Shown piece by piece: positions 18,544-62,123 of a DNA stretch of 64,000 bases (position 1 is its first letter; every line of letters starts with the position of its first letter). The notes under the pieces are model-generated. The model was not told the origin of the DNA. It did no database searches and saw nothing but the letters and a program-made list of their open reading frames with translations. Source of the stretch: an uncultured Acidobacteriota bacterium (GTDB lineage Bacteria > Acidobacteriota > Terriglobia > UBA7540); contig CAWDSK010000006.1 in assembly GCA_963804995.1 (NCBI GenBank), positions 864,001-928,000 of the forward strand, written 5' to 3'. Position numbers and translations under genes: made by a program.

Positions 18544-20637
18544 TTATGCTTCATACTGCACCTCATTGGTATGATTCGAGGGGTCCTCGAAGAATCGCTG
18601 CCTGGCAGCGAGCTTCGTCCCTTGCATCTTGCGCGGCGGATCATCGCCGGGGTGTTCATATAAACACTCGTTTTTCTCGTTGTAGGCTTGAGCTCTTAAC
18701 AGACCATGGTCCCGCCAGACTTTCACCCACCCGGTGGAGATGCCGAGCAGCTTAGCCATCTCTTGCAGGGTCAACAGGCCGGCTCCGCGTAGGCGAGTGT
18801 AACCGCTCTTCAAGGCATAGTTACGCCGTATGCGCGCGACGATGTGAGGGCTGAAGGGCCTGCCTTCGCCCGAGAGCCAGCCGCGTTCATTCAGCAGGCT
18901 AGCGATCTGCCGATCGGTACGTTGATCCAGGAGCCGGTCGATCTCCGCCACCACCTCCGGCTTGGTGGTGCGCTGTTTCCAGGCATTGAGGGGGATGGGC
19001 AAATGCAGGGTCTTTGTAGCTCCCCCCTTGAAGCGGATCTGAAGCGTGATCTCATGGTTGCGGGTCAACGTGACGTCTTCCAATAGAAGGCGGACCATAC
19101 GCTTCCGTTCTCGATGTGGCGTTTTCGCATCGCGCCACAGCCGAGGGAAGTCTGTGGCCAGGGCAAAAATCTGAGCGCGTTCCTCTTCCCGACACAACCC
19201 ACGGTCGACCTGACGTTGACGTTGATACTCTTGCTGAGCCTCTCCCAGAGCACGCAGCTTGTGGTTCCAGTCGGCCTCGAGCGAATCCGCCACGAGCCGG
19301 TTGTCGGGATCGCAACGCAAGTAGCGCCGCTCGGCCAGCTCCGCCTCATACCGGGCGCGCTCAACTTGGGTTTGGCGCAACCGATCCGCTTCTTCCCAAC
19401 GAGACTGAAGTTCTTGCTGCACGCTCAGCGCCACCTCCAGGGCTAACGGAGTGACCACTTCGATCAGCAGTTCCCCGATGGCCTGGTCGATACCCGCTCC
19501 AGGAACCGTCTGGCAGATGGTTTGAGCGTGTTCGATACCGTACCGCTGACACACATAATGGGGGGCCAGGCGTGACCGGTGAACATGATAACGCACGGTC
19601 ATCCGATTCCCACAGCGGCCACAGATCACTAATCCCTGCAGAAGCGCTGGACCTTCCCGCGGAGGGCTTTGACGACGGTCGGGACCCCAAGCTTGCGCGG
19701 ATTCCCGTAACCGCCGCTGATTGCTCTCATATTCTTCCCAGGAGAGGTAACCCGCATGGGCCCCAGGAAGGCAAGTGTCCCACTCCTCGCGAGGCAACCA
19801 CTTCACCGTCACGCCACCCTCCAGCTTCTTGCGCGTCTGACTCCGGCCAAAGACGTAGGCCCCGGCATACCGAGGATTGTGCAAAACGCGCAGGACATGG
19901 CTGTGAACAAGTTCCACCCATACCAACTCTCCTTGGTGGGGCCCCGCCCGCAGGCGGCGGGGAAACAGCAGCCCCTGCTGGCGAAAGGCCTTCACCGTGG
20001 CCAGGGCGGATCCCGTACGACGGAAGGTTTCAAACAAGAGTCGAAGGCCCTGTTGCACCTGCTGGTCCGGATCGAGAACGAGTTGCCCCGAGCCGTTATA
20101 GACCAAGCCGACCGGAGGTGGGATCTCCAACTCACCGCGCCGAGCTTTGCTGAGGATTCCGCCTCGCAACCGGGCTCGCAGCACGTGCAGTTCCGCCTCG
20201 CTCATCGTGCCTTTCAGCCCCAACAGCAGGCGGTCATTAAAGTGCGCCGGGTCGTAGATGCCATCTTCATCCAAAATGAGCGTGTCGGTGAGCGCGCAGA
20301 TCTCCAGCAGTCGATGCCAGTCCGTGGAGTTGCGCGCCAGGCGCGACACCTCGAGACCCAGAACGATCCCTGCTCGCCCCATCCCCACTTCACTCACCAA
20401 CCTTTGAAATCCCTCTCGGTCTACCGCCGAAGCTCCCGACTGGCCTTGATCGTTGTCGATCACGATGATCCGTTCCAAAGGCCAGCCCAGGGCCACGGCC
20501 TGTTGGCGTAACGCGTACTGGCGCTGGGTGCTCTCGGTATTCTCAAAGACCTGCCGAAGCGTGGACTGCCGGATATACAGGTAGGCGTCGCGTTTCAAAT
20601 GGTGGGCTTGAACCTTCTGCGGCATTTCGGTTCTCAT
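18544..20637 (-). CDS. Large serine recombinase (resolvase, recombinase, Zn ribbon, coiled coil)
   Basis: YIRQS catalytic Ser, SRLARN, LHNPRYAG, CGRCG...C...C. Confidence 0.95.
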   Translation of the reverse strand: MRTEMPQKVQAHHLKRDAYLYIRQSTLRQVFENTESTQRQYALRQQAVALGWPLERIIVIDNDQGQSGASAVDREGFQRLVSEVGMGRAGIVLGLEVSRLARNSTDWHRLLEICALTDTLILDEDGIYDPAHFNDRLLLGLKGTMSEAELHVLRARLRGGILSKARRGELEIPPPVGLVYNGSGQLVLDPDQQVQQGLRLLFETFRRTGSALATVKAFRQQGLLFPRRLRAGPHQGELVWVELVHSHVLRVLHNPRYAGAYVFGRSQTRKKLEGGVTVKWLPREEWDTCLPGAHAGYLSWEEYESNQRRLRESAQAWGPDRRQSPPREGPALLQGLVICGRCGNRMTVRYHVHRSRLAPHYVCQRYGIEHAQTICQTVPGAGIDQAIGELLIEVVTPLALEVALSVQQELQSRWEEADRLRQTQVERARYEAELAERRYLRCDPDNRLVADSLEADWNHKLRALGEAQQEYQRQRQVDRGLCREEERAQIFALATDFPRLWRDAKTPHRERKRMVRLLLEDVTLTRNHEITLQIRFKGGATKTLHLPIPLNAWKQRTTKPEVVAEIDRLLDQRTDRQIASLLNERGWLSGEGRPFSPHIVARIRRNYALKSGYTRLRGAGLLTLQEMAKLLGISTGWVKVWRDHGLLRAQAYNEKNECLYEHPGDDPPRKMQGTKLAARQRFFEDPSNHTNEVQYEA

Positions 20638-20939
20638 CCTCTCACCTCCGGCCGACTGTGAAGTACCATGCTCGCCAGAATCGTAACCACTTCCGTGTGC
20701 AGATCGAGAGGAACCCTCTCCTCAGGGCCGGACGGATTCTGGGGTTTCATCGGAATCCCACCCGGCAGGCAGTGGGACCAGGCTTCCATCCAGCCTTTCA
20801 TCCCCTGGCGAATAAACAGCGCCAGGCCCAAGGCTCCGCGCCTGCCGCCTAACTCACCCCGCACTTGTCGCCGGAGTTCCTCATATTGGTTTACGATCCC
20901 CTCCTGGGCCATCAGGGGAGCAACGGGAGGGTCGCTCAA
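20634..20939 (-). CDS. Small hypothetical protein of the recombinase element
   Basis: The TTG start overlaps the upstream stop (TTGA), and its own stop overlaps the recombinase ATG (ATGA). Confidence 0.7.
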   Translation of the reverse strand: MSDPPVAPLMAQEGIVNQYEELRRQVRGELGGRRGALGLALFIRQGMKGWMEAWSHCLPGGIPMKPQNPSGPEERVPLDLHTEVVTILASMVLHSRPEVRG

Positions 20940-21403
20940 CGTCGTTTTTTTTGCTGCTGCCGAAGCCGGCGCTCCAAGCTGCGAGGATGGACCCGTAGAC
21001 GGAAGGCTTTCTTCACCCGGGCCGCCAGTTCCTCGCTCCGCAAGGAGGGTTCGGCAGCTCGGGCCTGCCGGACGAACTCCATTACCTCGGCCGTGAGCTT
21101 GTGGGCGTGCCGAGGTCCCCGTTTCTGGGGAATCAATCCTGCGAGTCCCCTGGCTACGAAGCCCGCCTGGGCGAGGTAGAAGGAGGGTCTGGAGAAACCA
21201 AAAGCCTCCGCCGCTTGGCTCACCGCTTGGTTTTCGACCCTCACTTGGCGCAGCATCTCGTACTTGACCTGCAGCAAGTCCCGGGGATCGAAGAAGTCGC
21301 TGTCCTGGAACAGGGCGTGGGCCACCTCCTGCGGGCGGGGATTCAAGGTACCTTGGGAGCGCAGGATATGGCGCTTGGCATCGTGGCGTGAGGAAGGGGA
21401 CAT
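20936..21403 (-). CDS. Helix-turn-helix protein
   Basis: VSQAAEAFGFSRPSFY HTH; GGAGGAG RBS. Confidence 0.85.
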   Translation of the reverse strand: MSPSSRHDAKRHILRSQGTLNPRPQEVAHALFQDSDFFDPRDLLQVKYEMLRQVRVENQAVSQAAEAFGFSRPSFYLAQAGFVARGLAGLIPQKRGPRHAHKLTAEVMEFVRQARAAEPSLRSEELAARVKKAFRLRVHPRSLERRLRQQQKKRR

Positions 21404-21444
21404 GGGCTCCTCCGGAGCAAATCCGGCAAACGAGTGTAATGTTA

Positions 21445-21473
21445 ATTATATACATTCTCTTGCTCCCTGTCAA
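21445..21473 (-). promoter_or_regulatory. Consensus sigma70 promoter for the HTH-orf-recombinase operon
   Basis: TTGACA-N17-TATAAT, exact consensus. Confidence 0.85.
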
Positions 21474-21623
21474 GCCTTTTCTATCCTCCGACCCGAATTT
21501 GTGTTGCACAATAAGCGGATATTGCACTCACACACCCACCGAAAACTCTGGACTTCGGCTCAAGCTCCGACATAATCCCTTTAACACAAACGGCGTAATT
21601 CCCTTTACAGACCTTCCGGGGCT

Positions 21624-23285: not shown

Positions 23286-23402
23286 GTGTACATCTTTTTT
23301 ATATAATTACACCAACTATAAATGTTAATATAAATGTGAAGTGTCAGGCGCTGAGTGCCAAGTACTAGGTGCTTGGGGCTGAGGGCTGGGGAGAAGCCGT
23401 AA

Positions 23403-23546
23403 GCAGCGAGCGTTTTTTGCGAGTCCCGACAAGTCGGGATGGGCAGCGAGCGCTTTTTGCGAGTCCCGACAAGTCGGGATGGGCAGCGAGCGCTTTTTGC
23501 GAGTCCCGACAAGTCGGGAAAGGCAGCGAGCGGGATTTGCGAGTCC
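23403..23546 (+). repeat. 40-bp tandem repeat (about 3.6 copies) with internal hairpin
   Basis: GCAGCGAGCGCTTTTTGCGAGTCCCGACAAGTCGGGATGG; no spacers. Confidence 0.9.
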
Positions 23547-23769
23547 TAGTGGGCCAGGGTGGACAGCATGCTGACTCCTGATTTCCAACTTCTGATTCCA
23601 GAAATCTGACTAGTGCATGAAGTCAACGGTAAGTTGTCGCCTGTGAGCTGTCAGCCCTAAAAGGTAATTCCAACTTCTGGGAAGTCCGCCGCGTCACCAG
23701 CCGGCTGCTGAAAATCATACCCCGAGAGCGCAGAATGGAACCCGTGGAAGCGAGCAGAGAGGACCTACT

Positions 23770-24040
23770 AACCCATGATATAGTAGAAAACAAAGGTACT
23801 TAGCGGTAAAATGGCAGAAATGTCCAAGCATCTATGTTGCTGAAATTAAATCATATAGCTCGTGCGAACGGCCTGGGAGCAGTGAAACAGGGGGAATTAA
23901 AAATGAAGGATGAACCCATCATGTTGTTGAAAACACATGTAGAAAAAATGTCGGTTTTGCGCTAACCCATGATGTTTATGAAAAATAAGCTAGTTATCGT
24001 CGCTAACCCATGATGTCTATGAAAAGAAAGGGAGTTATAA
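23770..24040 (+). repeat. AT-rich degenerate direct-repeat array
   Basis: Five copies resembling AACCCATGATGTTNNTGAAAANAAAG. Confidence 0.8.
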
Positions 24041-24083: not shown

Positions 24084-24436
24084 GTGAGTAAGAATGGTTT
24101 CGCAGCGTCGGGCCTTGATGCAGATCTGGCCGTGGTCAAGACGCCAAACGGCCATCCCCCGACCTCAGGGCACTCGCTCATTCTCATTTGCCGGCCACCC
24201 ACACTCCCCCGCATCGCTTATCGGCGGAAGGAGGCAGCGAGGTGAGTAAAGATAGTTCCGCGACACCGGTTCTTGATGCAGCGATGGCCGCGGTCAAGGC
24301 ACCAAACGACCGACCGATCACCGAGCCCTCGCTGCTCCCCCTGCATCGGCCGCCCACACTCCCCTGCATCGCTTATCGGCGGAAGGAGGCAGCGAGGTGA
24401 GTAAAGATAGTTCCGCGACACCAGTTCTTAATGCAG
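24084..24436 (+). repeat. 155-158-bp tandem repeat (about 2.3 copies)
   Basis: Units start GTGAGTAA at 24084, 24242 and 24397. Confidence 0.85.
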
Positions 24437-24614
24437 GGCCTGCGTGCGGTTCGCGGAGCAACTCGACAACCTGCAATCACCGGAGAATCTCGCGGCGCTG
24501 GTGGCTCCCCAGGACGAAAAATCGCTGCTCATGCAAAGAATGGAAGATTCCAACCTGCGCCAATTGTGGCGGCTTACGAACGTGCTATTTAAGGTCCGCA
24601 ACGGAGCGCTGACC

Positions 24615-26559
24615 GGTTCTGTCAAAAGTTTTATGAAAGGTAATGAAGGGTCGGGAGGTGGGTAGAGCTGGGGGATTTGCCCCCAGACCCCCAGGATTTA
24701 TCGCTTTGGTGCCAAGATGGGTCTGGACTGGGGGAGCGAGTGGGGCTCGCTCCCGACCGATCTCGGCCCCGGGGTCGGCGCTCAGGTCGCATCCCTGCGG
24801 AGCCCTATCCTCCGCCCCGGCCACCGCGAAGTTTACTCCCACCGGGCTCAGGCCGCCAGGGCGAGAGCGAGGATCTTGTTCCACTGGCCTTGCAAGGTGG
24901 TGAGGGAACTCAACTCCGGCAAGGGGATGGGTACGCGGTAGCCCAGGGCCAGATGGGGGCGAAGGAAGTTGTAGTGGGTGACGAACAGGGTGGTGAGGGC
25001 CACGGCGCCGTTGCGCGTGGCAAAGCCGCAAGCCGGGCGGACGTGGTATTTGTAGGTGCGATTGAGACGTTCGATGAGTTGCTTGAAGGGGCGGAATTCC
25101 TTGGAGACCGCGTCGAGGTTTTCCAGGCCGATGACCTGCCGCAAGGTATGGGGAGGTTGGGAAGCGGTGCGGTGAGCGTTGAGGAAGTGTACGCCGGCCT
25201 GATAAGCGGGGTTGCCGTCGGTGATGAAACGCAGGGCCTGATCTTCGGGCAAGGTGCGCGCGGCCTCGCCCAGGGCCACGGTGGCGGCCAAGGCATCGCG
25301 CTCCGGCGCCACGTGATAGGACGTGATGCGATGCCCTTGGGGATCGAGAAAGAAGAACGTGTATGGGTGCTTCCCCGCGACGCGAATATAAGTCTCGTCG
25401 CCGGTGGCGGTGGCGCTGAGCGGGGCTTTGTAGCGGAGGTTGAAGGCGTGGCAGTAGTAAGCGGCGGCCTGGGCATAGTTGAGAACGGACTGGTAGCTGA
25501 GAGGCACGCCGAAGACTTGCCGCAGGACCTGGGCGGTCTTGCGGGCGGAGAGGGCGAAAGAGATGTGGAAGGCCAACACCAGGCCCAAGACATCGGAAGA
25601 ACGATGCAGACGGGTGAGGTCGACGGTGGGCGGATCGGGAGCGGTGGGGGCCAGTTGGGCGGGTTGAAAGTGGTATTCGCGATACTGGTAACGCAGCTTG
25701 AACTGCGTGCGGCGCAGCTTCTGGAGCAACTTCTCGTTCCAGTGCAGGGCTTGCTGCTTCTGGAGATAGTGAGGACAACGCTCGCCAGGACATTTGTAGA
25801 TGGTGCAATCGGCACGCTGCTTCCAGCGGAAGAGGGAGCTGCCGCAGTAGGGGCACCAGTAAGGAGTTTTCGTCGGGCGATGACGACGAGCGATTTGCGA
25901 CAGCCGGCCACAGACTTTGCAGCGCAGTTGGCGGGCGTGACGGCCATCGTTGAGGTAGAGGAAGTCGCGCGGTGCGCCGCAGTGGGCACAACGACAAGTG
26001 GGAGGCAGGGGGTGGGCGCCAGAACGCTGAATCGGAGCCAACGGTCGGCGGTGCTGGCGCTGGTACTGAGCCAGCAACTGCCGCCAGTTCCAGGTGCGAG
26101 GTGCCGGAGGCGGCTGGGTCAAGGGAGCCAGAGGGTCAACGTAGAAGTCGCGATAGTGTGGATGCTGCTGGCGAAAGTCGTCGCGGGGTTGAGGCTCGGG
26201 CTGGCGCCCGGCGAGAATCTCTTGCAGTTGCTCGACCAGTTCCTGCAAATCCTGGCGGGTAAATTTCCTACAGAGCCAAAGCACCAATCGTGGTATCTTG
26301 CCCATGGCGGTGAGTCTCTCGGGAACCTGGCGGGTTCCCTACAAGGTGGATTGGGAAAGAGAGACTTCACCGCCCTTTTTGTTTGCCGTCAAGCCCCACG
26401 ACGCAGTTACGTCCAGGAACTTAAGCGCGGCAACCCGACCGCACCTCACGCCAACGTCCTAGTCAAGCGCACCCGGAGGGGGGAGAAAGCAGAAAATCCA
26501 GTTTCTCCCAGCAATTCAATGGGTTATCGCCTTAGGGGACAAAAATTCTTGACACAACC
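24615..26559 (-). mobile_element. IS6-like element, copy 1 (1945 bp), 8-bp TSD CGCTGACC
   Basis: IRs GGTTCTGTCAAAAGTTTT and AAAATTCTTGACACAACC; TSD at 24607-24614 and 26560-26567. Confidence 0.9.
24848..26305 (-). CDS. DDE transposase (IS6/IS240-like core) with N-terminal Cys-rich Zn ribbons
   Basis: DETY, ITDG and IERLNRT motifs; several CxxC pairs. Confidence 0.9.
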   Translation of the reverse strand: MGKIPRLVLWLCRKFTRQDLQELVEQLQEILAGRQPEPQPRDDFRQQHPHYRDFYVDPLAPLTQPPPAPRTWNWRQLLAQYQRQHRRPLAPIQRSGAHPLPPTCRCAHCGAPRDFLYLNDGRHARQLRCKVCGRLSQIARRHRPTKTPYWCPYCGSSLFRWKQRADCTIYKCPGERCPHYLQKQQALHWNEKLLQKLRRTQFKLRYQYREYHFQPAQLAPTAPDPPTVDLTRLHRSSDVLGLVLAFHISFALSARKTAQVLRQVFGVPLSYQSVLNYAQAAAYYCHAFNLRYKAPLSATATGDETYIRVAGKHPYTFFFLDPQGHRITSYHVAPERDALAATVALGEAARTLPEDQALRFITDGNPAYQAGVHFLNAHRTASQPPHTLRQVIGLENLDAVSKEFRPFKQLIERLNRTYKYHVRPACGFATRNGAVALTTLFVTHYNFLRPHLALGYRVPIPLPELSSLTTLQGQWNKILALALAA

Positions 26560-27037
26560 CGCTGACCCATAGAGATGTTAAAAATGAAGATCGACCCGGG
26601 GATGTGTATGAAAACAAAGGCGAGGATGACAAAATGTCGTGCAATTTACCAGTGTTTTTCCAAGAAAATGCAGAAATTTCACGATAATTCACACCATTGA
26701 ACAGATTTTTGACAGAAATTACGGGTTGCGCGGTAATTCGGGGCAAAGGCAGATGGCTTTTTTTGAAGACAAAAATGAGCATATCGCGCTACTCGCGGGC
26801 AGGGGCATAAATTCGCGCGAATCCAGAGGGTGCAACCCGGGTTGGATTGTGTTGGCGAAATGGCCTTCCAATGGAAAGGCAAATGCCGGAGGCGGACCGG
26901 CCTGTTCCTGCGGTGGCTGCCGCGTCCCTGACGTAGCACAGGGAAAAAATCCGCGCCTGTCATGGGTTGAATTTCGCAGCCTGGCAGGGCCGACCGAGTA
27001 CTGTGGGGTGGCAGGTCGCCCCAAAGCGGAGCAGCAA

Positions 27038-31896: not shown

Positions 31897-32203
31897 GCAG
31901 TAGGCAGTGGGCTGTGGCGGATAGGCGGTAGGTAAAAGCGGAAGGCGATTCCGAGGGAGGGAAGAGCAAGGCAAAAGGCAAAGTGCAAAATGCAAAAGGC
32001 AAAAGTACAGGACGGACAGGAATGATTCAAACTAATTTCGGTTCATCGCGTCGCGAAGAACACGTCAAAAGGCAAAGCCGGGACCAAAGATTGCCAGGTC
32101 CGGCGAAAGCGGTTTTTGGGTTTCTACTTTTGCCTTTTGCATTTTGCACTTTGCCTTTTGACTTCGCACTTCCTACCGCCCATCACCGGGAAGTAAGGAA
32201 CTA

Positions 32204-33880
32204 ATGAATCTTTCTCTCGCTCGACAAATCGTTATGGCGGTCCTGGCCGCCACCCTGCTCTGGGCGAATCTGCGTACGCCTGCCCAGGGACCGGCGCCAA
32301 AGCCTCTCCCGCCCGCATCGCGCGTGACCTACGAGGACGTCACGGCGAAATCCGGCATTAACTTCCAGCATTCCTTCGGCGAGCAAAAGCTCAGTTCCAT
32401 CATGGAGGCCACCGGTTCCGGCTGTGCCTGGATCGACTACAACAACGACGGGCTGCTGGATCTTTACGTCGTGAGCGGTCGCTACCTGGATGGGGTCACC
32501 AAGTTTTCGAAGCCCCAGGGCATGGACGCAACGAACCATCTCTACCGCAACAACGGCGACGGCACGTTTACAGACGTCACGGCGCAGGCCGGTGTGGGCG
32601 GCAAAGGCTTCGGCATGGGCGTCACCGTCGGCGACTACGACAACGATGGCTACGAAGACATCTTTGTGACCAACTGGAATTCCTCGATTCTTTACCACAA
32701 CAACGGCAATGGAACCTTTACCGACGTCACCGCCAAGGCCGGAGTTGAGAACCCTCACTTTGGCACGGGCGCGGCATGGGTGGACTACGACCGCGACGGC
32801 AAGCTCGATCTCTTCGTAGGCAACTACCTGAAGTTTGACCCCAATGCCAAGCGCGAGTACTTCACCGCAGAGGCTTTCCCCGGCCCACTCGATTACGAGG
32901 GCACCGCCAATCGACTCTTCCACAACAATGGCGACGGCACGTTTACGGATGTCTCGCACCAGGCGGGCATTGACAACCCTCTGGGCCGCGCCATGGGACT
33001 GACCGTGGGTGATTACGACAACGACGGCTGGCCCGACATCTATATCGCCAACGACACGATGGAAAGCTACCTGTACCACAACAATCACGACGGCACGTTC
33101 ACCAATGTCGCGCCGGACGTGAACACCGCTTTCGGGGCCAATGGCGAAGCGACCTCCGCCATGAATCCCATCTTTGGAGATTACGACAACGACGGCTGGC
33201 AGGATCTGTTTGTCTCCGACATGCGCTACCACCGGTTGTTTCACAACCCCGGCGACAAGGGTTTTTGGCTCGACACAACGGTTGAGACGGGTGTGGCGGC
33301 GGTTTCCGGCCAATACGTGGCCTGGGGCGATGGCTTCTTCGATTTCGATAACGACGGCTGGAAAGACATCTTCATTGTGAATGGCGGCCTGCACTGGCTG
33401 ATCCCCATGGAGGATTCCCTCCTCCGCAATAACGGTGATTCAACGTTCACGGATGTGTCATCCCAAGCGGGCGACTATTTCAAGACGAAGAAAGTCGGCC
33501 GCGGCGCTTGCTTCGCAGATTACGACAACGACGGCTACATGGATGCCTTCATTGTGGTGCTGGGCGGCAAAGGTATTCTGCTGCATGCCAAGCCCCCCGT
33601 GTCAGGCCCGCGCAATCATTGGCTAACCATCAAGTTAGTGGGCACCAAGAGCAATCGCGATGGATTCGGCGCGCGCTTGGAAGCTATCGCCGGCGACTTG
33701 CACCAGTATGTTGAGGCGGTTTCTGAGAATGGCTATCTCTCCCAAGGCGACCCGCGCCCGCACTTCGGCCTGGCGCAGCACACAGAAGTCGACAAGCTCA
33801 TTATTCATTGGCCCAGCGGAACCAACCAAGTGCTCGAGCACGTTAAGGCGGACCAGATTTTGACAGTCAAGGAACAGTGA
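32204..33880 (+). CDS. CRTAC1/ASPIC-UnbV FG-GAP protein
   Basis: DYDNDG repeats, HFGL and IHWPSG motifs; signal peptide. Confidence 0.92.
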   Translation: MNLSLARQIVMAVLAATLLWANLRTPAQGPAPKPLPPASRVTYEDVTAKSGINFQHSFGEQKLSSIMEATGSGCAWIDYNNDGLLDLYVVSGRYLDGVTKFSKPQGMDATNHLYRNNGDGTFTDVTAQAGVGGKGFGMGVTVGDYDNDGYEDIFVTNWNSSILYHNNGNGTFTDVTAKAGVENPHFGTGAAWVDYDRDGKLDLFVGNYLKFDPNAKREYFTAEAFPGPLDYEGTANRLFHNNGDGTFTDVSHQAGIDNPLGRAMGLTVGDYDNDGWPDIYIANDTMESYLYHNNHDGTFTNVAPDVNTAFGANGEATSAMNPIFGDYDNDGWQDLFVSDMRYHRLFHNPGDKGFWLDTTVETGVAAVSGQYVAWGDGFFDFDNDGWKDIFIVNGGLHWLIPMEDSLLRNNGDSTFTDVSSQAGDYFKTKKVGRGACFADYDNDGYMDAFIVVLGGKGILLHAKPPVSGPRNHWLTIKLVGTKSNRDGFGARLEAIAGDLHQYVEAVSENGYLSQGDPRPHFGLAQHTEVDKLIIHWPSGTNQVLEHVKADQILTVKEQ

Positions 33881-33968
33881 CGCATTTCGAGCAAAGAGCA
33901 AGGCAAAAGGCAAAGCGCAAAAGTCAAAAGGCAAAGCCGGAAGAGCGAATTAGAAGTCAAAGGCAACG

Positions 33969-36007
33969 GTGGAGAGGGCAAAACCGGTGATTAGCGTTAG
34001 CGCCCCACAGTTACGCAGGATGTCCCCGAAGCGGTATTGGGGGAACAACTTTTGCCTTTTGACTTTTGCGCTTTGCCATTTGACTTGCTTTCTGCCGTTG
34101 GCCGCCCCTCTCAATACACAGACGGCTGTCGCCGCCGAGCCCGAGTACCTCACACCCGGCGATATCAAACTCTCCGCGGACGGGAAGAAACTCTTCATCG
34201 CCTGCGAGGGCAATGATTCTGTGATCGCCCTCAACACGCAGACGAAAAAGGTTGCGTCGCGCGCCAAGGTCGGCCACAGGCCCCGAGGCATCGCCCTCTC
34301 TCCGGACGGCAAGACCCTCTACGTCTCAAACTCTTGGAGCGACACGGTCAGCGAAGTCGATGCCGCGACCTTCGAGGTTAAGCGCACGCTCAAAACCGGC
34401 TGGGGGCCGGTGGGCTTGACCACAGATCGCTCCGGCAAAACGCTCTACGTCGCCAACAGCATCGGGGATAGCGTCTCACTGCTTGACCTCGCCACCGGGA
34501 CTGAAATCAAGCGCTTCACCACTCATCGCTATCCTGAGCAGGTGGCGCTTTCGCGCGACGGCCGCCGTGTCTACGTTTCGAACATCTTGCCTCTGCTCGG
34601 ACCTTACGATCAGCCGCCGGTATCGGAATTACTGGTGCTCAACGCCACCAAGCAAGTGGTCGCTGAGCGCATTTTGATTCCCGGGGTGATCGAATTGCGT
34701 CACATCGCGGAAGCGCCGGCCCGGCTGGGTGGATATTTGCTGGTTCCCTTTCTGCGGCCGAAGAATCTTGGGCCGCTAGTCCAGGTGAGCCAGGGATGGA
34801 CGCTGACGCACGGGATGGCCGTGGTACGCCCCGCCTTGCGTGAAACTGTGGGTGAAGCAAGATCGAAGGTGACGGAAGTTCTGCTCGACAACATTGATTA
34901 TTACTTTGCCGGAAATGACGGCGTCGCCTTCACCCCGGACGGCCGCCGCGCAGTTGTTACTTCCGCGGAGGCCAACGTCGTATCAATCCTTGATACCGCT
35001 AAACTCGCCGAGCGCCTGCGGCAGGTCCCTGCGGAGGAACTCCCGGACCGCCTCAACTCCGCCGCCACCTTTGTCACCGCGCGTCTGGCAACGGGCCACA
35101 ATCCAGGCGCGGTCGTGGTCTCACCCGACAGCCGCTGGGCTTACGTCGCCAATCGACTGGACGATTCCATGACTGTCATCGATCTCGAATCGACTGTAGC
35201 GGCGGTCTCCGACCGCCGAAACGTCGATCGGAGATCAACGCTACAGCCGGCCGGTCGGAGATCGGCGCTACAGACCCTTGACCTTGGCGGGCCGAAGGTA
35301 ATCACACCGATGCGGCGGGGCGAGCAGTTGTTCCATGCGGCGAAGTATTGCTTCCAGGGCCAGTTCGCGTGTGGGACCTGCCACCCCAATTCTCACCTGG
35401 ATGGTTTGGCATGGAACCTGGAAACGCCGCAACTTGGGCGCGACCGTGTGGCCAACCGCACGCTACGGGGGATTCGCGAACGGCGCCCTACAAGTGGAAT
35501 GGCCACAATCCGGACCTCGCCACGCAGTGTGGTCCCCGCATCGCCAAGTTCCTTTTCCGTTCGGAGGGCTTCAACGCTCAGGAATTGGAGGCTCTGCTTA
35601 CCTACATCAACGACATTCCGCTCGCACCCAACCGCCATCTCGCGCCCGACGGGCAGTTGACCGAATCCCAGGAGCGCGGCAAGACCATTTTCTATCGCGA
35701 ATACACGAACCAGGGGGGCGCGATTCCCGTCCAGAATCGTTGCTACACCTGCCACCCGGCGGAGACGCACTACACCAATCGCATCAGTACGCAGGTGGGC
35801 TCCGCCACCCGGTACGACACCAGCGGATTGTTCGACACCCCGCAGCTTGATCGCGTCTACGAAGACGCGCCGTACCTGCATAACGGCGAGGCGCTGACGC
35901 TCGAAGAAATCTGGACGGTGTTCAACAACCAGGACACGCACGGGATTACGTCGGACATGAGCAAGGAGCAGTTGAATGACCTTATTGAGTTCTTGAAGAC
36001 GCTTTAG
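33969..36007 (+). CDS. YVTN beta-propeller fused to a diheme cytochrome c (peroxidase-like) domain, frameshift near 35480
   Basis: LYVSN/LYVAN repeats, CGTCH, TAPYKWNG, CYTCH and APYLHNG. Confidence 0.85.
35195..35272. repeat. GTAG-type REP cluster inserted in frame
   Basis: TGTAGCGGCGGTCTCCGACCGCCG plus two inverted ...CGGAGATCRRCGCTACA copies. Confidence 0.75.
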
Positions 36008-36174
36008 CCATTGGTGATTGGTGATTGGTGATTTGCGATTTTAGTTGATCTTTTGTAGCACTGAACTTTAGTTCAGCCCTTAAAGACATTGTAGAGACGG
36101 CGAAGAACAAGGCAAAAGGCATCGCTGGACGAGCAAAGTGCAAGGCAAAAGGCAAAAGTAAGGGACGGACGGCA

Positions 36175-37440
36175 ATGATTCATACTGATTTTGGATTCCC
36201 GCATCGGGAGAAACAAATCAAAAGCCAAGGCCAGGACAAACACTGCCAGGCTCGGGGGAAGCGGTTTTCGGGTTTCTACTTTTGCCTTTTGCCTTTTGCC
36301 TTATGCCTTTTGACTTGTTCTTCCTCCTTTGCCGCTCCGCGTCCAACCCTTATCACCCGCTGGGAAAACTTCACCACCAAAAGCGGCATGCCCGACGCCA
36401 AGGTCTTCTGCGTGACCGTAGACGGCAGCCGCGTATGGGCGGGCACTGAAGACGGGCTGGCGCTCATCGAGAACGGCAAGGTCGCGAAAGTATACAAGCC
36501 CGCGGATGGCCTCGCGCACCGCGTCGTGATGGGCATTGCTGTGGACAAGAACACGGGCGACCTATGGATCGCGACGTTCGGCGGGGTCAGCCACTTCTCC
36601 GGCGGCCGTTTTGAGAATTTCAAAAATCTGACCAGCGGCCTGCTGAACGATATCTGTTACGGGATTGCCGTGCAGGACAAATTCGTTTGGGTGGCGACCA
36701 CGGCGGGCATCAGCCGCTATAACACGTACACGGGCGAGTGGAACAACTGGAGCGAAAAGAATGCGCCGTTCCACGAACCGTGGACTTACGGGATAGTCAT
36801 CGCCCCGGAGCTCGGCAAAGTGTACTTCGCTATGTGGGGCGCCGGCCTGATTGAATACGACAACCAACAGGGCTACATGAAGGCCTACACTGACCCCGAC
36901 GAGGAAATGGAAATCGTGCTGTTCAAAAATCAGGGCCTCGTCCACGTCATCGTCTCGAACGTCGCCTACGACCCCGACACCAGGATGGTCTGGGCTTCCA
37001 CCTATTTCGGCCTCAGCGGTTATGACGGCCGCGACTGGCACAACTATCTGACCAAGGACAGCGGCCTGGCCTCAGATTTTATCAACGCTCCCAAATCGCG
37101 CCGCAACCAAGTATGGGCCTGCACGGATAAAGGGCTTAGCCGGCTCGATTACGCCACCAACACCTGGGTCACCTATCGGCCCAGCAAACAGAAGGGCCAG
37201 GGCGAAATTGAAATCACCTGGCCGGACGGCAAGAAACAATTTCTATCCACACCCACAACCCTCGCGCACAACTACATCCTGAATATGGATTTTCAGGGTG
37301 AAGACATTTGGGTGGCTACAGCCCAAGGGCTGAGTCACGGAATTCGCGAACCTCAAAAGGAGTCTCAACTTTATGCCAATCCCGGAAACCATCACAACAC
37401 CGGAAACGTCGGATCAGGTCATCTCCAAAAAGGCGATTAG
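36175..37440 (+). CDS. Exported beta-propeller protein (two-component regulator propeller-like repeats)
   Basis: VWAGT, LWIAT, VWVAT and IWVAT repeats. Confidence 0.8.
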   Translation: MIHTDFGFPHREKQIKSQGQDKHCQARGKRFSGFYFCLLPFALCLLTCSSSFAAPRPTLITRWENFTTKSGMPDAKVFCVTVDGSRVWAGTEDGLALIENGKVAKVYKPADGLAHRVVMGIAVDKNTGDLWIATFGGVSHFSGGRFENFKNLTSGLLNDICYGIAVQDKFVWVATTAGISRYNTYTGEWNNWSEKNAPFHEPWTYGIVIAPELGKVYFAMWGAGLIEYDNQQGYMKAYTDPDEEMEIVLFKNQGLVHVIVSNVAYDPDTRMVWASTYFGLSGYDGRDWHNYLTKDSGLASDFINAPKSRRNQVWACTDKGLSRLDYATNTWVTYRPSKQKGQGEIEITWPDGKKQFLSTPTTLAHNYILNMDFQGEDIWVATAQGLSHGIREPQKESQLYANPGNHHNTGNVGSGHLQKGD

Positions 37441-37897
37441 CGCCCCCGAGGTCCTGAACGAAGCCTTTCATTACCCCAAACCCTCGTCCTTCTCGCGCGG
37501 TCTGCGCCTGGATATCAAGGGCATCACCATCCTGCTGATCTCCGGCACTGCCAGCGTCGATGAGTACGGCAGAAGCATCCACGTAGGGGATTTCCGCGCC
37601 CAGACCTGGCGGACCTACCACAACATCACGAAGTTGCTGGAAGCCGAGGGCGCCACTTGGAAGGATATAATCAGGACCACCTGCTATCTGCGCGATATCG
37701 AGCGCGACTACGAAGTATTCAACGAGGTTCGGACGCACTTCTTCGAGGAGCAGGGACTCAACCCGCTGCCCGCCTCCACCGGCATCCAAGCCATTCTCTG
37801 CCGCCCCGACCTGCTGGTTGAGATTGAGGCCATGGCAATCTTCGACAGCGACCGCGGCACCGGCAAGGACGGCGGAGAACGAAAGGTCGCGGCGTGA
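37373..37897 (+). CDS. RidA/YjgF family protein
   Basis: ISGTAS, FNEVR, PAST and LLVEIEA motifs. Confidence 0.88.
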   Translation: MPIPETITTPETSDQVISKKAISAPEVLNEAFHYPKPSSFSRGLRLDIKGITILLISGTASVDEYGRSIHVGDFRAQTWRTYHNITKLLEAEGATWKDIIRTTCYLRDIERDYEVFNEVRTHFFEEQGLNPLPASTGIQAILCRPDLLVEIEAMAIFDSDRGTGKDGGERKVAA

Positions 37898-37973
37898 GAA
37901 GAGCAGTGGCTAGTGGTTAGTGGTCAGTGGCTAGTGGCAAGTAGTTAGTTTGTGCTTTTGAGAGACAAAAAAT

Positions 37974-40575
37974 ATGCACCACCAAGACACCAAGACACAA
38001 AGAAAGCAAGGGACCTGGCGCTGGGCAGACAAGAAACTCAAAAGGCCAAATTCGCGACTTTTGCCTTTTGCCTTTTGCAATTTGCCTTTTGACTTCGCTC
38101 TGACCACCTGCCTACTGCCCACTGCCTACTGCCTGCTTTGTGCCTTGGTGGGAATCCTGCTGGCGCTGCCCCTCCGCGCCCAGTCCGCTGACCCGGGCCA
38201 GGCCAAGCCTGCCTCCCCGCCCGTTCGAGCGGTACGCCAACATGCCGGATGAAGCGATCCCTTACCGCCGTTTCACCAAGCCCTACTACGACTGGTTCGT
38301 GCGCGATGATACCATCCAGTACCACGGCGCGGCGGACCTGCGCCCGGACGGCGATCCTGCGAAGCTGCAGGAAATCGCCATCGGATTTCTTTCCCCGGTC
38401 GAGAACAACCCCGAATCCATCTATGGCATTCCCGCCCTGCACGGCGCGCAACTAGCCATTGAGCAAGCGAACGCCGCGGGGGGATACAAGGGAAAACCTT
38501 TCGCGCTCAAGGTCCATAACGAGTCGGCGCTCTGGGGCGCTTCCTCCTCTGAGCTTGTCAAGATGCTCTTTGATGAAAACTGCTGGGCCATGGCGGGGTG
38601 TATCGACGGCCAGAACTGCCACATCGCGCTGCGCGTGACGCTGAAGTTGGAACTCCCCATCCTGGACACCGGCACGACCGACCGCACCGTCACCGAGACG
38701 CGTATCCAGTGGTTGCTGCATAACTTTCCGGATGATCGCCAGCAAGGCTATACGCTGGCCGACTACGTTTTTAAGACCCTCAAGTTGAAGCGCCTGGGCG
38801 TGTTGCGCACCCAGACGCGCTACGCCCGCATCGGCGTCGGAGAGTTCAACGACGAGGCGCGGCGGCTGGGGCATCAGCCGGTCTTGGAGGTAAAGTTTGA
38901 GCGGGGTGACCAGGATTTTTCAAACCAGCTCCGCATGCTGCGCGACGCGAAGGTTGAAGGTGTGATCATTTGGGCTGAGGCCGAGGATGGCGGCCACATC
39001 CTGAAACAGATGCGCGCCCTGGGCATGAACCAACCGGTCTTTGGGGGCAGCCGCCTGGCGTATCCGCAGTTGCTCGAGATTGCCGGACCCGCCGCGGAGG
39101 GTGTGGTCGTCACTTCGGCGCTAGACCCAACTCGCACGGACCCCAAGTGGCTGGCCTTTCGCGATGCTTACGTCCAGAAATTCCACGCAGAACCTATCGA
39201 CTATGCCGCTTATGCCTACGACGGCATCAACATTCTGATTGCAGCGATCGAGAAGACCGGCCTCAACCGCGGGCGCATCATGGATGTGCTGCGCGAGTAC
39301 GAGATGAAAACTTACGAGGGCGTTACCGGCACTGATTTCTTTGACTATACGCTCAACAACCTTGCGCCCGTCACCCTGGCCCGCGTTAAAGACGGCAAGT
39401 TTGAATATTGGCGCGCGCCGCGCCAGCGTGGCCACGAAGGCCCCGTCTCGGCCCTTACACCTGCGCCTTCCGCCCCTGTGCCGTACGCGGCCATCAATCG
39501 TGACGCGGTCAATTACCACGGGCCTGGACGCGATTCCAGCCACGATCTGAACGGCACAGAGATTCGCATCGGATTACTCGCGCCACTCGCCGGCCCACGC
39601 CAGGCTGAGGGCGAGGATTTGCGCCGCGCTGCGCAGATGGCGATCGATGAAGAGAATACCACTTCCCTACCCGGCGGCCGCCGGCTGACATTGACCACGC
39701 GCGATGAGAGTGGGCCGTGGGGGCAGGCCAGCACGGAAATCGTCCACTTGGTCTCCGACGATCAGGCCATGGCGCTCATCACCTCCGCTGAGGGCGTCTC
39801 CGCGCACCTGGCGGAACAAGTTGCGAACAAAGTCGGCGTGCCCATCCTCACGCTTTCCTCCGACCCAACGACGACTGAAATCAACTTGCCCTGGCTCTTC
39901 CGTCTGGGACCAACCGACGCCGCGCAGGCGCAGGCCTTTGTGCGCGATATCTATGGCAAGCGGGGATTCCAGCGCGTCGTGCTGGTAACCGAAGACAACC
40001 ACGACGGCCGCATTGGTGGCGAGGAATTTGAGCGAGCCGCGCGGGAAATGAATGCGCCCGCACCCACGCGAATCAGCATTGCGCCCGAGAAACTGCTGCT
40101 GGACGGATTGGTTAGGGAACTTCAGGGCGTGCAGGCTGTGGTCATTTGGGCAGATGCAGGGACAGCGAACCAGCTTGTCGAGCCAGTGCGCGCAACGTTG
40201 CCCTCTGTGCAACTCTACCTTTGTCGCAAGGCGGTGCGACGCGAGTCGGGCAACCCGCACGCCCCCCCCTGCGCGACGTGCGGTGGTGATAAGGCAGGAA
40301 CCTGGACCGCGAGTACGCCCCAGAATCAAGCAGCCTATTGGGCCTTCGAGCAGCGCTACTATCAGCGCTATGCCGTCGAGCCCGGCGTCGGTGCGGCACA
40401 GGCCTATGACGCGGTGCGGCTGCTGGCCGCCTCACTCCGTCAATCAGGTCCCAATCGCACGCGCCTCCGTGACGCTTTGGCCGGAGTTTCCGGCTACGCG
40501 GGCGCTTCAGGAATTATCTCCTTCGATCATGCCGGCAACGACCTTACAGCCGTTGCCTTGACCCGCCTTCCCTGA
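37974..40575 (+). CDS. Tandem (double) Leu/Ile/Val-type periplasmic binding protein, frameshift near 38220
   Basis: Two IG...P...AQ.AI domains with AYAYDG/AQAYDA and GVTG/GASG. The signal peptide is in the 37974 frame. Confidence 0.82.
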
Positions 40576-59073: not shown

Positions 59074-61018
59074 GGTTCTGTCAAAAGTTTTATGAAAGGT
59101 AATGAAGGGTCGGGAGGTGGGTAGAGCTGGGGGATTTGCCCCCAGACCCCCAGGATTTATCGCTTTGGTGCCAAGATGGGTCTGGACTGGGGGAGCGAGT
59201 GGGGCTCGCTCCCGACCGATCTCGGCCCCGGGGTCGGCGCTCAGGTCGCATCCCTGCGGAGCCCTATCCTCCGCCCCGGCCACCGCGAAGTTTACTCCCA
59301 CCGGGCTCAGGCCGCCAGGGCGAGAGCGAGGATCTTGTTCCACTGGCCTTGCAAGGTGGTGAGGGAACTCAACTCCGGCAAGGGGATGGGTACGCGGTAG
59401 CCCAGGGCCAGATGGGGGCGAAGGAAGTTGTAGTGGGTGACGAACAGGGTGGTGAGGGCCACGGCGCCGTTGCGCGTGGCAAAGCCGCAAGCCGGGCGGA
59501 CGTGGTATTTGTAGGTGCGATTGAGACGTTCGATGAGTTGCTTGAAGGGGCGGAATTCCTTGGAGACCGCGTCGAGGTTTTCCAGGCCGATGACCTGCCG
59601 CAAGGTATGGGGAGGTTGGGAAGCGGTGCGGTGAGCGTTGAGGAAGTGTACGCCGGCCTGATAAGCGGGGTTGCCGTCGGTGATGAAACGCAGGGCCTGA
59701 TCTTCGGGCAAGGTGCGCGCGGCCTCGCCCAGGGCCACGGTGGCGGCCAAGGCATCGCGCTCCGGCGCCACGTGATAGGACGTGATGCGATGCCCTTGGG
59801 GATCGAGAAAGAAGAACGTGTATGGGTGCTTCCCCGCGACGCGAATATAAGTCTCGTCGCCGGTGGCGGTGGCGCTGAGCGGGGCTTTGTAGCGGAGGTT
59901 GAAGGCGTGGCAGTAGTAAGCGGCGGCCTGGGCATAGTTGAGAACGGACTGGTAGCTGAGAGGCACGCCGAAGACTTGCCGCAGGACCTGGGCGGTCTTG
60001 CGGGCGGAGAGGGCGAAAGAGATGTGGAAGGCCAACACCAGGCCCAAGACATCGGAAGAACGATGCAGACGGGTGAGGTCGACGGTGGGCGGATCGGGAG
60101 CGGTGGGGGCCAGTTGGGCGGGTTGAAAGTGGTATTCGCGATACTGGTAACGCAGCTTGAACTGCGTGCGGCGCAGCTTCTGGAGCAACTTCTCGTTCCA
60201 GTGCAGGGCTTGCTGCTTCTGGAGATAGTGAGGACAACGCTCGCCAGGACATTTGTAGATGGTGCAATCGGCACGCTGCTTCCAGCGGAAGAGGGAGCTG
60301 CCGCAGTAGGGGCACCAGTAAGGAGTTTTCGTCGGGCGATGACAACGAGCGATTTGCGACAGCCGGCCACAGACTTTGCAGCGCAGTTGGCGGGCGTGAC
60401 GGCCATCGTTGAGGTAGAGGAAGTCGCGCGGTGCGCCGCAGTGGGCACAACGACAAGTGGGAGGCAGGGGGTGGGCGCCAGAACGCTGAATCGGAGCCAA
60501 CGGTCGGCGGTGCTGGCGCTGGTACTGAGCCAGCAACTGCCGCCAGTTCCAGGTGCGAGGTGCCGGAGGCGGCTGGGTCAAGGGAGCCAGAGGGTCAACG
60601 TAGAAGTCGCGATAGTGTGGATGCTGCTGGCGAAAGTCGTCGCGGGGTTGAGGCTCGGGCTGGCGCCCGGCGAGAATCTCTTGCAGTTGCTCGACCAGTT
60701 CCTGCAAATCCTGGCGGGTAAATTTCCTACAGAGCCAAAGCACCAATCGTGGTATCTTGCCCATGGCGGTGAGTCTCTCGGGAACCTGGCGGGTTCCCTA
60801 CAAGGTGGATTGGGAAAGAGAGACTTCACCGCCCTTTTTGTTTGCCGTCAAGCCCCACGACGCAGTTACGTCCAGGAACTTAAGCGCGGCAACCCGACCG
60901 CACCTCACGCCAACGTCCTAGTCAAGCGCACCCGGAGGGGGGAGAAAGCAGAAAATCCAGTTTCTCCCAGCAATTCAATGGGTTATCGCCTTAGGGGACA
61001 AAAATTCTTGACACAACC
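59074..61018 (-). mobile_element. IS6-like element, copy 2, no matching TSD
   Basis: Same IRs and length as copy 1; flanks are TACTGATC and GCACAGAT. Confidence 0.9.
59307..60764 (-). CDS. DDE transposase, near-identical to 24848-26305
   Basis: One visible substitution (ARRHR versus ARCHR). Confidence 0.9.
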   Translation of the reverse strand: MGKIPRLVLWLCRKFTRQDLQELVEQLQEILAGRQPEPQPRDDFRQQHPHYRDFYVDPLAPLTQPPPAPRTWNWRQLLAQYQRQHRRPLAPIQRSGAHPLPPTCRCAHCGAPRDFLYLNDGRHARQLRCKVCGRLSQIARCHRPTKTPYWCPYCGSSLFRWKQRADCTIYKCPGERCPHYLQKQQALHWNEKLLQKLRRTQFKLRYQYREYHFQPAQLAPTAPDPPTVDLTRLHRSSDVLGLVLAFHISFALSARKTAQVLRQVFGVPLSYQSVLNYAQAAAYYCHAFNLRYKAPLSATATGDETYIRVAGKHPYTFFFLDPQGHRITSYHVAPERDALAATVALGEAARTLPEDQALRFITDGNPAYQAGVHFLNAHRTASQPPHTLRQVIGLENLDAVSKEFRPFKQLIERLNRTYKYHVRPACGFATRNGAVALTTLFVTHYNFLRPHLALGYRVPIPLPELSSLTTLQGQWNKILALALAA

Positions 61019-61432
61019 GCACAGATCGTAGAGATGTTAAAAATGAAGGTCGATCCGGGGATGTGTATGAAAACACAGGATAGGGGACAATTTGTCTGGC
61101 TATTATTCGACCTTTTTGCAGAAAATTCCGGAGTTTTGTGACAATCGACGGCAATCGAACGGGATTGTTGGCCGACAATGCACAGGTTATACGGAAATTC
61201 GGGGCGAATCAGCGCCGACCTTTAGAGCCCTCCCCGAACACTTCGCGGTTATGGGGGCGCCAGCCTGCCCCGGAATTGGGCAACCCCCGCCCCCCCGATC
61301 AGGTCCCGCAGAGGGGCGGAGAGCAGAGGGCAAAAATAGAGGGGTAGCGGCGGATTTACCTTGCCCAAGGAGGCGTCCCGATAGGATCGGGATGGATTCC
61401 GTCACGTCGGCATCCAGTTGGCTCGCCACCCT

Positions 61433-61816
61433 ATGCCACGATGTTTCAGATAACAAAAGGAGTTAGCGAAGAGGAGCAAAAACTATCAAAATGTAACTCA
61501 TTGAAACAACAAGACTAATTCAATCTGCGGAAATTTACTCAACCCCCTAAGCCACGATGTTATAGAAAGCAAAAGGGGTTAGCAATGGAGAGAGGAAACG
61601 TGGCAAAAATCTATCTGATTGAAATAAGGAGAGTTAATCGATTCTGTTGCAAATGGGGTGAGGAAAAAAGGGGGATTAAAAATGAAGGAAGAACCCACGA
61701 TGTTGTTGAAAACAAAGAAAGAAGGAAGTGACATTGTGACTAATGCCACGATGTTGCTGAAAAATAAGGTAGTTATAATTGTAAAGCCACGATGTTTATG
61801 AAAATAAAGGGACTTA
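61433..61816 (+). repeat. AT-rich degenerate direct-repeat array, second locus
   Basis: About six copies resembling GCCACGATGTTNNTGAAAANAAAG. Confidence 0.8.
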
Positions 61817-62123
61817 CTGGATGTGATGGGGGAAAGGAAAGAACGAACCCTGCAGCGAGAAAAGGGCCGAAAGGTGCAATAGCCGTTGTACGGGGCGTCA
61901 AAAGCGGTGATGTCCGCTGCCCCAACCGACCCGCCGCGGCCCCCTACCTCGGCCACCGGTTGTCACTGCGAGGACAAATGACCGCGATGGCCCGGGGGAC
62001 CCTCGGCGAGCGACCAACGCCGCCGACCGAATGCCGCCCGCCCGTGAGACACTCCCCCCCTCGGTTATCGGTGGACTCGACGCTGACGATAGGGGAAATT
62101 GGGTGGCCCACAACAGCAGCTTA

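Follow-up and report, generated by a model that had tools for sequence, protein, structure and literature searches.

How does an insertion sequence (IS) come to lie twice, within one stretch of DNA, at the same nucleotide of a repeated sequence, and what does its transposase recognize there? The question is raised by 64,000 nucleotides from an uncultured Acidobacteriota bacterium (assembly GCA_963804995.1, contig CAWDSK010000006.1, positions 864,001 to 928,000; hereafter the window), in which two copies of an IS6-like element stand before the same target motif. Comparison with loci of relatives gathered from genomes and metagenomes supported the view that a long IS6-like transposase chooses its target precisely and in one orientation. 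What could not be read from the window alone is that the target of the family is a Shine-Dalgarno (SD) sequence plus start codon, and that the repeat is the derived target of one clade. Judged from sequence comparison, the transposase of this long, IS6-related DDE insertion sequence probably reads its target DNA directly. The new content would be that the family as a whole targets SD plus ATG, that this target is linked to the zinc ribbons of the transposase, and that a switch to the repeat apparently took place recently.

Below, G000 is the source genome, C1, C3 and C6 are its contigs and L-numbers designate collected loci; positions +n are bases counted after the 8-bp target duplication, on the side of the left terminal inverted repeat (IRL). 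Copy 1 occupies 24615..26559 on the minus strand (1945 bp), which corrects the extent of 24576-26640 proposed in an earlier note on this DNA; its transposase is encoded on the minus strand, so that the right end in the window is the IRL. The tips of copy 1 are GGTTCTGTCAAAAG, the right terminal inverted repeat (IRR; 24615..24628, plus strand), and TTCTTGACACAACC; the IRL, always the end adjoining the target motif, reads GGTTGTGTCAAGAA (26546..26559, minus strand). A clean 8-bp duplication, CGCTGACC, borders the element at 24607..24614 and 26560..26567 (both plus strand). Copy 2 (59074..61018, minus strand; transposase at 59307-60764) lies 34,459 bp beyond copy 1 and differs from it in 1 of 1945 bases; its flanks are mismatched (TACTGATC / GCACAGAT), with no duplication. 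The earlier note had correctly described the copies as nearly identical, their left flanks as aligning without gaps over 39 bp, and both as having their ends exactly 10 bp ahead of TAGAGATGTTAAAAATGAAG in one and the same orientation; of the 39 aligned flank positions, 23 are identical. The core of the target repeat lies at 26570..26616 beside copy 1, with AGATGT occupying +6..+11 and ATGAAG placed at +17, and at 61029..61075 beside copy 2 (both plus strand). A longer version of the motif occurred 2 times in the window, as against 0 in 100 shuffles.

This placement was not confined to the window. G000 contains seven copies of the element, six of them full-length and 0-1 base apart, and three of the seven have clean 8-bp duplications. 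Six of the seven lie in the repeat, as do 9/9 copies in a related genome, eight of which have duplications, several of them different, so that the precise target choice within a repeated family claimed from the window stood. Duplication of the IS together with its flank, which the earlier note had deemed unlikely, did take place: window copy 2 and the C3 copy have 36 bp of left and 737 bp of right flank in common without a difference and therefore represent one insertion duplicated with its flank. Two other copies have 40 bp of right flank in common. Such duplication fails to explain the overall pattern, since the on-target copies of G000 amount to about 4-5 independent events, and the chance of 4/6 on target is p ~1e-22. 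The off-target copy, on C1 (L349), has a clean duplication followed by GATGGGGATGTCGAAGG, with GATGT kept at +7..+11; it seems to interrupt a frame that we take to resemble another integrase-like gene. The copy on C6 at 1397597 (L351) carries a 1641-bp insertion with a transposase-like frame in its left non-coding region.

The target repeat was found in G000 in 22 copies at <=2 mismatches, 16 of them empty and 6 occupied at the same position. It corresponds to the 3' end of the coding sequence of a multicopy hypothetical gene, a remnant of which (24432..26684, plus strand) is broken by copy 1 at codons 282-283, with codons 223-283 to the left of the IS and 282-322 to its right. An intact member of 322 aa is present at G000:C3:26911-27876 (L348:909-1877, minus strand), and many partial copies occur in G000 (37 tblastn pieces). 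No Pfam or NCBIfam family matched this gene, and its Atlas matches were solely hypothetical Acidobacteriota/Planctomycetota clusters; the spread of the gene itself hints at a mobile or repeated element so far unrecognised. Derivation of the repeat from the IS was ruled out, as the repeat occurred in 13/18 genomes of the same genus (0/12 other genomes searched) and the transposase was matched in 2/28 other genomes of the genus. In a class-wide protein search the transposase was matched in 3/401 genomes. The notion that the repeat target imitates a terminal repeat (TGTTAAAA versus TGTCAAAA) was not adopted either, because it needs a spacing of 11 bp and the junctions show 8. Clusters of a 38-nt repeat of type CCAYGATGTTNTTGAAAA, which is related to the target repeat through the latter's second half, were observed at 23768-24040 and 61431-61819 near both IS copies, which lie in similar repeat-rich islands.

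In order to place this target within the family, 180 loci with a match were collected. The left end was located in 150 of them, yielding 117 unique flanks with a length of 32 bp or more; the elements are kin and not independent, and each unique flank is counted as a separate insertion. The strict repeat target was present in 13/117 flanks. The remaining 104 sites differ and comprise 60 near sites (elements at least 65% identical), including the off-target copy of G000 and two repeat-like sites (L100, L027, L038), and 44 distant sites (about 44-58% identical) from hosts which by record title are Nitrospirota, Thermodesulfobacteriota, Omnitrophota, Bacillota, archaea and others. A Shine-Dalgarno tetramer GG[AG][GTA] occupied +6..+9 at 56/60 near and 37/44 distant sites (93/104 overall), and an ATG followed at +15..+18 at 54/60 and 38/44 sites, respectively (92/104 overall). 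As a background, an ATG stands at that distance in 2411 of 35,788 RGGAG sites of G000 (6.7%). The orientation of the motif relative to the element was identical across the family sites. The alignment of flanks of genomic copies and homologues hence revealed a motif in fixed register, not random flanks. At sites with enough flank, the targeted ATG opened an open reading frame (ORF) of at least 80 codons in 31/40 near and 27/34 distant cases, as against 1/12 in the repeat; shorter ORFs accounted for 9/40, 7/34 and 7/43 targeted ATGs, and for 11/12 in the repeat clade. Overall, 94/117 targeted ATGs (~80%) start real ORFs, and at 23/27 sites no upstream ORF on the same strand ended within 70 bp. 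An 8-bp duplication was found in 45/105 loci having both ends, a low fraction attributable to short-read assemblies, which collapse multi-copy elements. In contigs of four sequencing runs empty sites of relatives were present, and no end-to-end element junction appeared among the matches listed.

As these junctions show, a motif present on one side only always begins 8 bp downstream of the point at which the IRL is joined, and 8 bp of free sequence are duplicated. In most of the family this motif is an SD, its GG at an offset fixed within each clade, followed by ATG(AA) at +15..+19, so that insertions fall in 5' untranslated regions and face away from the gene. Insertion upstream of the SD and ATG leaves the ribosome-binding site (RBS) and the coding sequence intact. 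In the Acidobacteriota clade that includes the window element, the first half-site has moved from GGAG to AGATGT, and the target is now the 3' end of a gene.

The same arrangement was observed in more remote relatives. A profile search returned 695 representatives at E<=1e-10, and a Lachnospiraceae protein, 34% identical, retrieved 578 genome stretches. In the best 80 of these the left end could be located in 70, giving 52 unique sites; an SD-like tetramer lay within +1..+10 in 46/52 and an ATG at +16/+17 in 46/52, with the GG of this clade offset at +4/+5. Three loci from Geobacillus and Levilactobacillus plasmids displayed the SD plus ATG target, the left end of one more being unlocated. Among relatives of 450 aa, the target was present in 4/10 loci, the sole ones with a usable left flank, and the SD target is seen in a 450-aa Halanaerobiales relative (L270). 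For the ISCpe7 family, all five located left ends faced SD plus ATG, the GG lying at +6/+7 and the ATG at +17..+19. The sixth locus (Cetobacterium), with unlocated left end, has an annotated divergent start at the same distance. One ISCpe7-family element (L345, NZ_CP075962.1) lies immediately ahead of the annotated start of the toxin gene cpb2, in the usual register of the family.

The non-coding ends are asymmetric and measured 254 and ~233 bp, close to the 230-250 bp estimated earlier. Both halves of the target recur on the element, one on each end. Counted from the IRR tip, ATGAA motifs lie sub-terminally at positions 19 and 29 (24633..24649, plus strand), the ATG at position 19 being present in 123/124 distinct ends and the motif absent from the IRL consensus. 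The target look-alike AATGAAGG pointed out in the earlier note is indeed present in the right end; it proved to be part of this ATGAA motif, which is fixed at position 19 whatever the target. In the IRL, CTCCCC (GGGGAG outward; 26480..26485, minus strand) begins 74-77 bp from the tip in the elements of 108/117 sites and is possibly an internal binding site for a GGAG-reading module. Between the tip and CTCCCC lies an IHF-like (integration host factor) site (26514..26526, plus strand), one mismatch away from the consensus WATCAANNNNTTR. The recurrence of target halves on the ends fits a protein that uses the same readers for ends and target, and also permits an RNA made across the junction. The shortest ends among relatives (109 + 89 bp, L141) kept the target. 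A hairpin in the transposase leader (26306..26374, minus strand) ends at the start codon and shows compensatory changes in 7/19 pairs across 21 sequences. Its variable loop did not sort by target class, and for this reason the hairpin is read as sequestering the transposase start in read-through transcripts, a known device of IS elements, and not as a guide. Scores for an outward sigma-70 promoter in the IRL were not above shuffles in four groups. Head-to-tail IRR-8 bp-IRL junctions of exactly 8 bp were found at four distinct loci (L017, L139, L183, L184), L017 being a tandem of two 91%-identical elements; they fit circles, use of the right end as target, or re-insertion, since re-insertion at a regenerated site gives the same joint. 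Swapped flank pairs (L009/L019 and L101/L104) fit cointegrates or recombination. Contig depth of a module of the right non-coding end (24724-24885) was far above that of the transposase in 3/4 sequencing runs, with many loose contig ends at 24752-24815, so that this module seems to be common to other elements.

The transposase (P0001, 24848..26305, minus strand) has 485 aa and extra zinc ribbons, as the earlier note had proposed. It matches Pfam DDE_Tnp_IS240 (PF13610; 32.4 bits, above the cut-off of 27) and rve_3, with the catalytic residues D303, D363 and E412. These three residues, the CxxC pairs 106/109, 129/132 and 151/154 and the pair C172/C177 are invariant in 114 homologues. The AlphaFold model (pLDDT 86) predicted a helical N-terminus, two zinc ribbons (aa 106-177; 25775..25990, minus strand), helices and a strand up to residue 215, a three-helix helix-turn-helix (HTH; aa 236-291; 25433..25600, minus strand) and an integrase-type core. 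A search with the whole fold returned generic DDE integrases. The zinc-ribbon domain gave no Foldseek match at E<=0.001, and the other rows, merely at Z 2-3 (NrdR, Dof), are no evidence. ISCpe7 aligned to residues 103-467 of P0001 (hhalign 99.6%), both zinc ribbons included and residues 1-100 outside; the double zinc ribbon is therefore an addition common to all SD-targeting members examined. In a quick tree of 82 rows out of 99 unique ones (partial rows omitted), the repeat-targeting elements except L005 formed a single branch (100% SH-aLRT, approximate likelihood-ratio support) nested among RBS-targeting Acidobacteriota elements. Comparison of nine rows of the repeat clade with 52 near RBS rows revealed 12 conserved positions that had changed: 9/82 in aa 101-215, 2/54 in aa 1-100, 1/70 in the HTH region and 0/147 in the catalytic domain. 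The Fisher test for this clustering (p=5e-5) overstates its strength because the repeat clade is one evolutionary event, and the clustering is suggestive only.

The HTH of Tnp26 binds the terminal repeat (PMC8477213, in part), and by analogy the HTH of P0001 probably does the same. The added double zinc ribbon, together with the adjoining helices, would read the GGAG or AGATGT half, at a fixed distance from the cut, and a flexibly attached part would read ATGAA, a motif presumably also bound at IRR position 19. If a single reader served both the target ATGAA and IRR position 19, the orientation would be fixed as observed. The switch from GGAG to AGATGT may then have been brought about by substitutions in the zinc-ribbon region. 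Direct readout by the transposase also agrees with the short IS6 elements that lack zinc ribbons, in which an SD-like tetramer was found in 0/23 and an ATG at +14..+19 in 5/23 unique left flanks; the ends of these controls were placed by pattern, and the 23 unique sites derive from 66 loci. Near sites carry ATGAA in 29/54 cases compared with 111/601 real-looking RGGAG starts of G000 (p=4e-8), an enrichment that is inflated for AT-rich hosts, its background being one genome of 58% GC. Both this enrichment and the ATGs that open no gene fit a readout of sequence.

Besides the limits of the residue clustering, of the controls and of the ATGAA background, several observations speak against direct readout by the protein. 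The evidence for it is all comparative, the zinc-ribbon model gave no convincing match among solved DNA-binding structures, and a spread of 4-5 bp in the position of the ATG is hard for a rigid protein. L005 matches a repeat-clade element exactly in its non-coding ends and sits in the repeat with a clean duplication, and its mosaic protein is of RBS type from about aa 120, with RBS-type residues at 10/12 diagnostic positions. The L005 frame itself has a shift at about aa 73-97 and eight other copies are present in the same genome, so that mobilisation in trans or later replacement of the interior is possible; under readout by the protein, one of these extra assumptions, trans mobilisation or post-insertion replacement, is required.

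An alternative that we regard as unlikely is that the donor ends or residues 1-120 determine the target in cis, for example with the IRL tip, sub-terminal sites and IHF bending shaping the geometry of the transpososome, possibly with a host factor at translation starts. L005, which has repeat-type ends and N-terminus and lies in the repeat, agrees with it, as does the large share of targeted ATGs that start real ORFs. The tip base of the Acidobacteriota IRL is likewise G in 20/20 repeat-class loci and C in 57/59 others. However, Lachnospiraceae elements with a G tip target RBSs, by which the tip base was ruled out as the determinant, and ISCpe7, without residues 1-100, still targets RBSs. Moreover, the nucleotide-exact register favours readout of DNA over tethering to ribosome or polymerase.

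Guidance by RNA appears quite unlikely. Here a transcript of the ends, possibly made across the IRR-IRL junction, would pair through UUCAU (IRR) and CUCCCC (IRL) with ATGAA and GGAG. Both complements are conserved in the ends, at the frequencies given above and in the required order, and such pairing would tolerate the variable SD-ATG spacing, which recalls IS900 (PMC8141618, in part). The IRR-8 bp-IRL junctions needed for such a transcript exist at the four loci named, and in the L005 mosaic the target goes with the ends. The repeat clade, however, keeps CTCCCC at position 75 (13/13) though its target has lost GGAG, and AGATGT was present in 0/20 ends tested. The longest matches of the ends to the repeat target (5-8 nt) were not above shuffles, and the base following the internal motif was no predictor of target position +10 (p=1.0). 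Both end motifs stand at a fixed distance from the tip, like protein sites, the ends can shrink to the lengths seen in L141, and no Rfam match was obtained in four loci at E<=0.5. The bolder version, in which both half-sites are read by RNA made across the joined ends, that is, an RNA-guided DDE enzyme whose guide comes from its own ends, is improbable. Of the protein- or RNA-directed targeting envisaged in the earlier note, the protein half is thus favoured and the RNA half is unsupported, as no guide covarying with the target was found in the ends. Finally, the absence of any real targeting, with broad insertion followed by selection for harmless events or flanks shared via duplication and gene conversion, gains something from the duplicated and shared flanks in G000 and from the modest number of loci with an 8-bp duplication, and is largely refuted and hardly credible, since selection is unable to yield a base-exact offset in a single orientation at 93/104 distinct sites, duplications vary between sites, empty sites exist and the short IS6 controls show nothing.

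Direct readout of the target by the transposase thus being the preferred explanation, it seems on balance rather plausible that the long IS6-like elements with zinc ribbons make up a separate family of DDE transposons, found across phyla, whose compact double zinc ribbon locates gene starts via SD plus ATGAA, and that a few substitutions in this module can retarget them to a new site of 17-23 bp. A nucleotide-precise, family-wide target would be a defining trait for long IS6-like elements, whose classification is disputed (PMC6807381, main-text parts on the long clades). With such a target, what the extra zinc ribbons do becomes open to direct test, the natural switch of specificity serving as control. 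Insertions between promoter and RBS are expected to leave genes unbroken but silenced or rewired, and the family is common in gut Lachnospiraceae and occurs also in Clostridium and in Geobacillus and Levilactobacillus plasmids. If the reading is true, these elements represent a single-protein, orientation-specific and naturally re-programmed integrase, and promoters and genes would be systematically uncoupled in gut Lachnospiraceae, Clostridium and soil bacteria. A one-protein transposase with a swappable target module would be of interest for genome engineering.

Other features of the window were noted. A large serine recombinase of 697 aa (18544-21527, minus strand; Resolvase, Recombinase, Zn ribbon and HTH) overlaps a 297-aa ORF without a Pfam match, and 40-bp tandem repeats lie ~2 kb away at 23363-23562; together they are a probable integrated element. 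REP-like (repetitive extragenic palindrome) long intergenic inverted repeats of GCAAAAG/CTTTTGC units are present at 31957-38108, with arms of up to 40 nt that are 98% complementary and ~115 nt apart. Two genes, 11705-13120 (minus strand) and 32204-33880 (plus strand), contain internal DNA repeats ~150-230 bp apart and presumably encode FG-GAP-like propeller proteins.

With respect to known systems, the best NCBIfam and Pfam family of the transposase is of IS6 type, and GGnnnTG is found at both ends of the window element (GGTTCTG and GGTTGTG); among the Acidobacteriota relatives that target RBSs, the majority carry CG at the tip of the IRL. The score of 69 bits lies below the 125 bits of the NCBIfam IS6 equivalog NF033587, the 485 aa and 1945 bp exceed the size of the redefined IS6/IS26 family (213-254 aa, ~790-880 bp), and the catalytic glutamate is followed by E412-RLNRTY-K419, with no H, in place of the signature E-DH---K or E-SH--K. 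By size, cut-off and signature the element lies outside the IS6/IS26 family as redefined (PMC6807381, in part). Its place is in the group of long IS6-like elements with a zinc finger (ISfinder clades h/i; VII/VIII): the multi-CxxC zinc finger N-terminal to the HTH that marks this group is present, as is the further N-terminal extension of ~100 aa typical of clade VIII/i, which corresponds to the residues outside the ISCpe7 alignment, and relatives of 450-490 aa have the same architecture. Elements of IS110/IS1111 type have a DEDD RuvC-like recombinase and no duplication; the fold here is DDE integrase-like and 8 bp are duplicated, and the covariation test of the ends found none of the target-covarying guide segments that characterize RNA-guided IS.

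In the literature searched, of which coverage was partial so that a prior mention is possible, no description of SD targeting by IS6-like elements was found. The long clades VII/h (ISCpe7, ISCbo1; 340-353 aa) and VIII/i (ISHahy6, ISHco2, ISTet2; 453-454 aa) have been defined, and no target motif, register, orientation or mechanism is given in the main-text parts concerned with them (PMC6807381, PMC7986276); there PMC6807381 states that experimental data on the long elements are lacking and proposes their removal from the IS6/IS26 family. ISCbo1 is described as 'in most cases located directly upstream a gene', with 8-9-bp repeats (PMC3098183, in part); in the supplement of that article (positions and repeats) the words 'ribosome' and 'upstream' are absent from its three text files. 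ISCpe7 is merely counted in the relevant part of PMC10210947.

The IS110 family is RNA-guided, and its member IS900 inserts between the RBS and the start codon. Members of the ISLre2 family (upstream of sigma-A promoters) and of the IS1202 group (beside XerCD sites) are DDE elements with fixed distance and orientation to a host signal; their transposase families and signals are different, and they are thought to use host-bound proteins or sites. The target motif of IS900, CATGNNNNNNTCTCCTT, consists of translation-initiation signals (PMC8141618, in part), in which it resembles the target of the window family. The IS900 recombinase is an unrelated DEDD enzyme without terminal repeats or duplication, whereas the window family has a DDE enzyme, an 8-bp duplication, insertion upstream of the RBS and no guide seen. 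With IS6/IS26 proper (IS26, IS257, IS1216) the element has in common the GGnnnTG ends, the 8-bp duplication and an HTH before the DDE core; it differs in being twice as long, in its two zinc ribbons, asymmetric ends and lack of an H after the catalytic E, and the short IS6 members differ in having no SD motif at their left ends. The likeness is closest to the long IS6-like clades, which in the published descriptions consulted in part have a zinc-finger N-terminal extension on an IS6-type HTH and DDE core, the 8-bp duplication and GGnnnTG-like ends. ISCpe7 aligns over residues 103-467 and its family has the same SD plus ATG target, whereas the window element, at 485 aa and 1945 bp, is greater in length, shows 24% identity to ISCpe7 when the profiles are aligned, and has the repeat as its new target.

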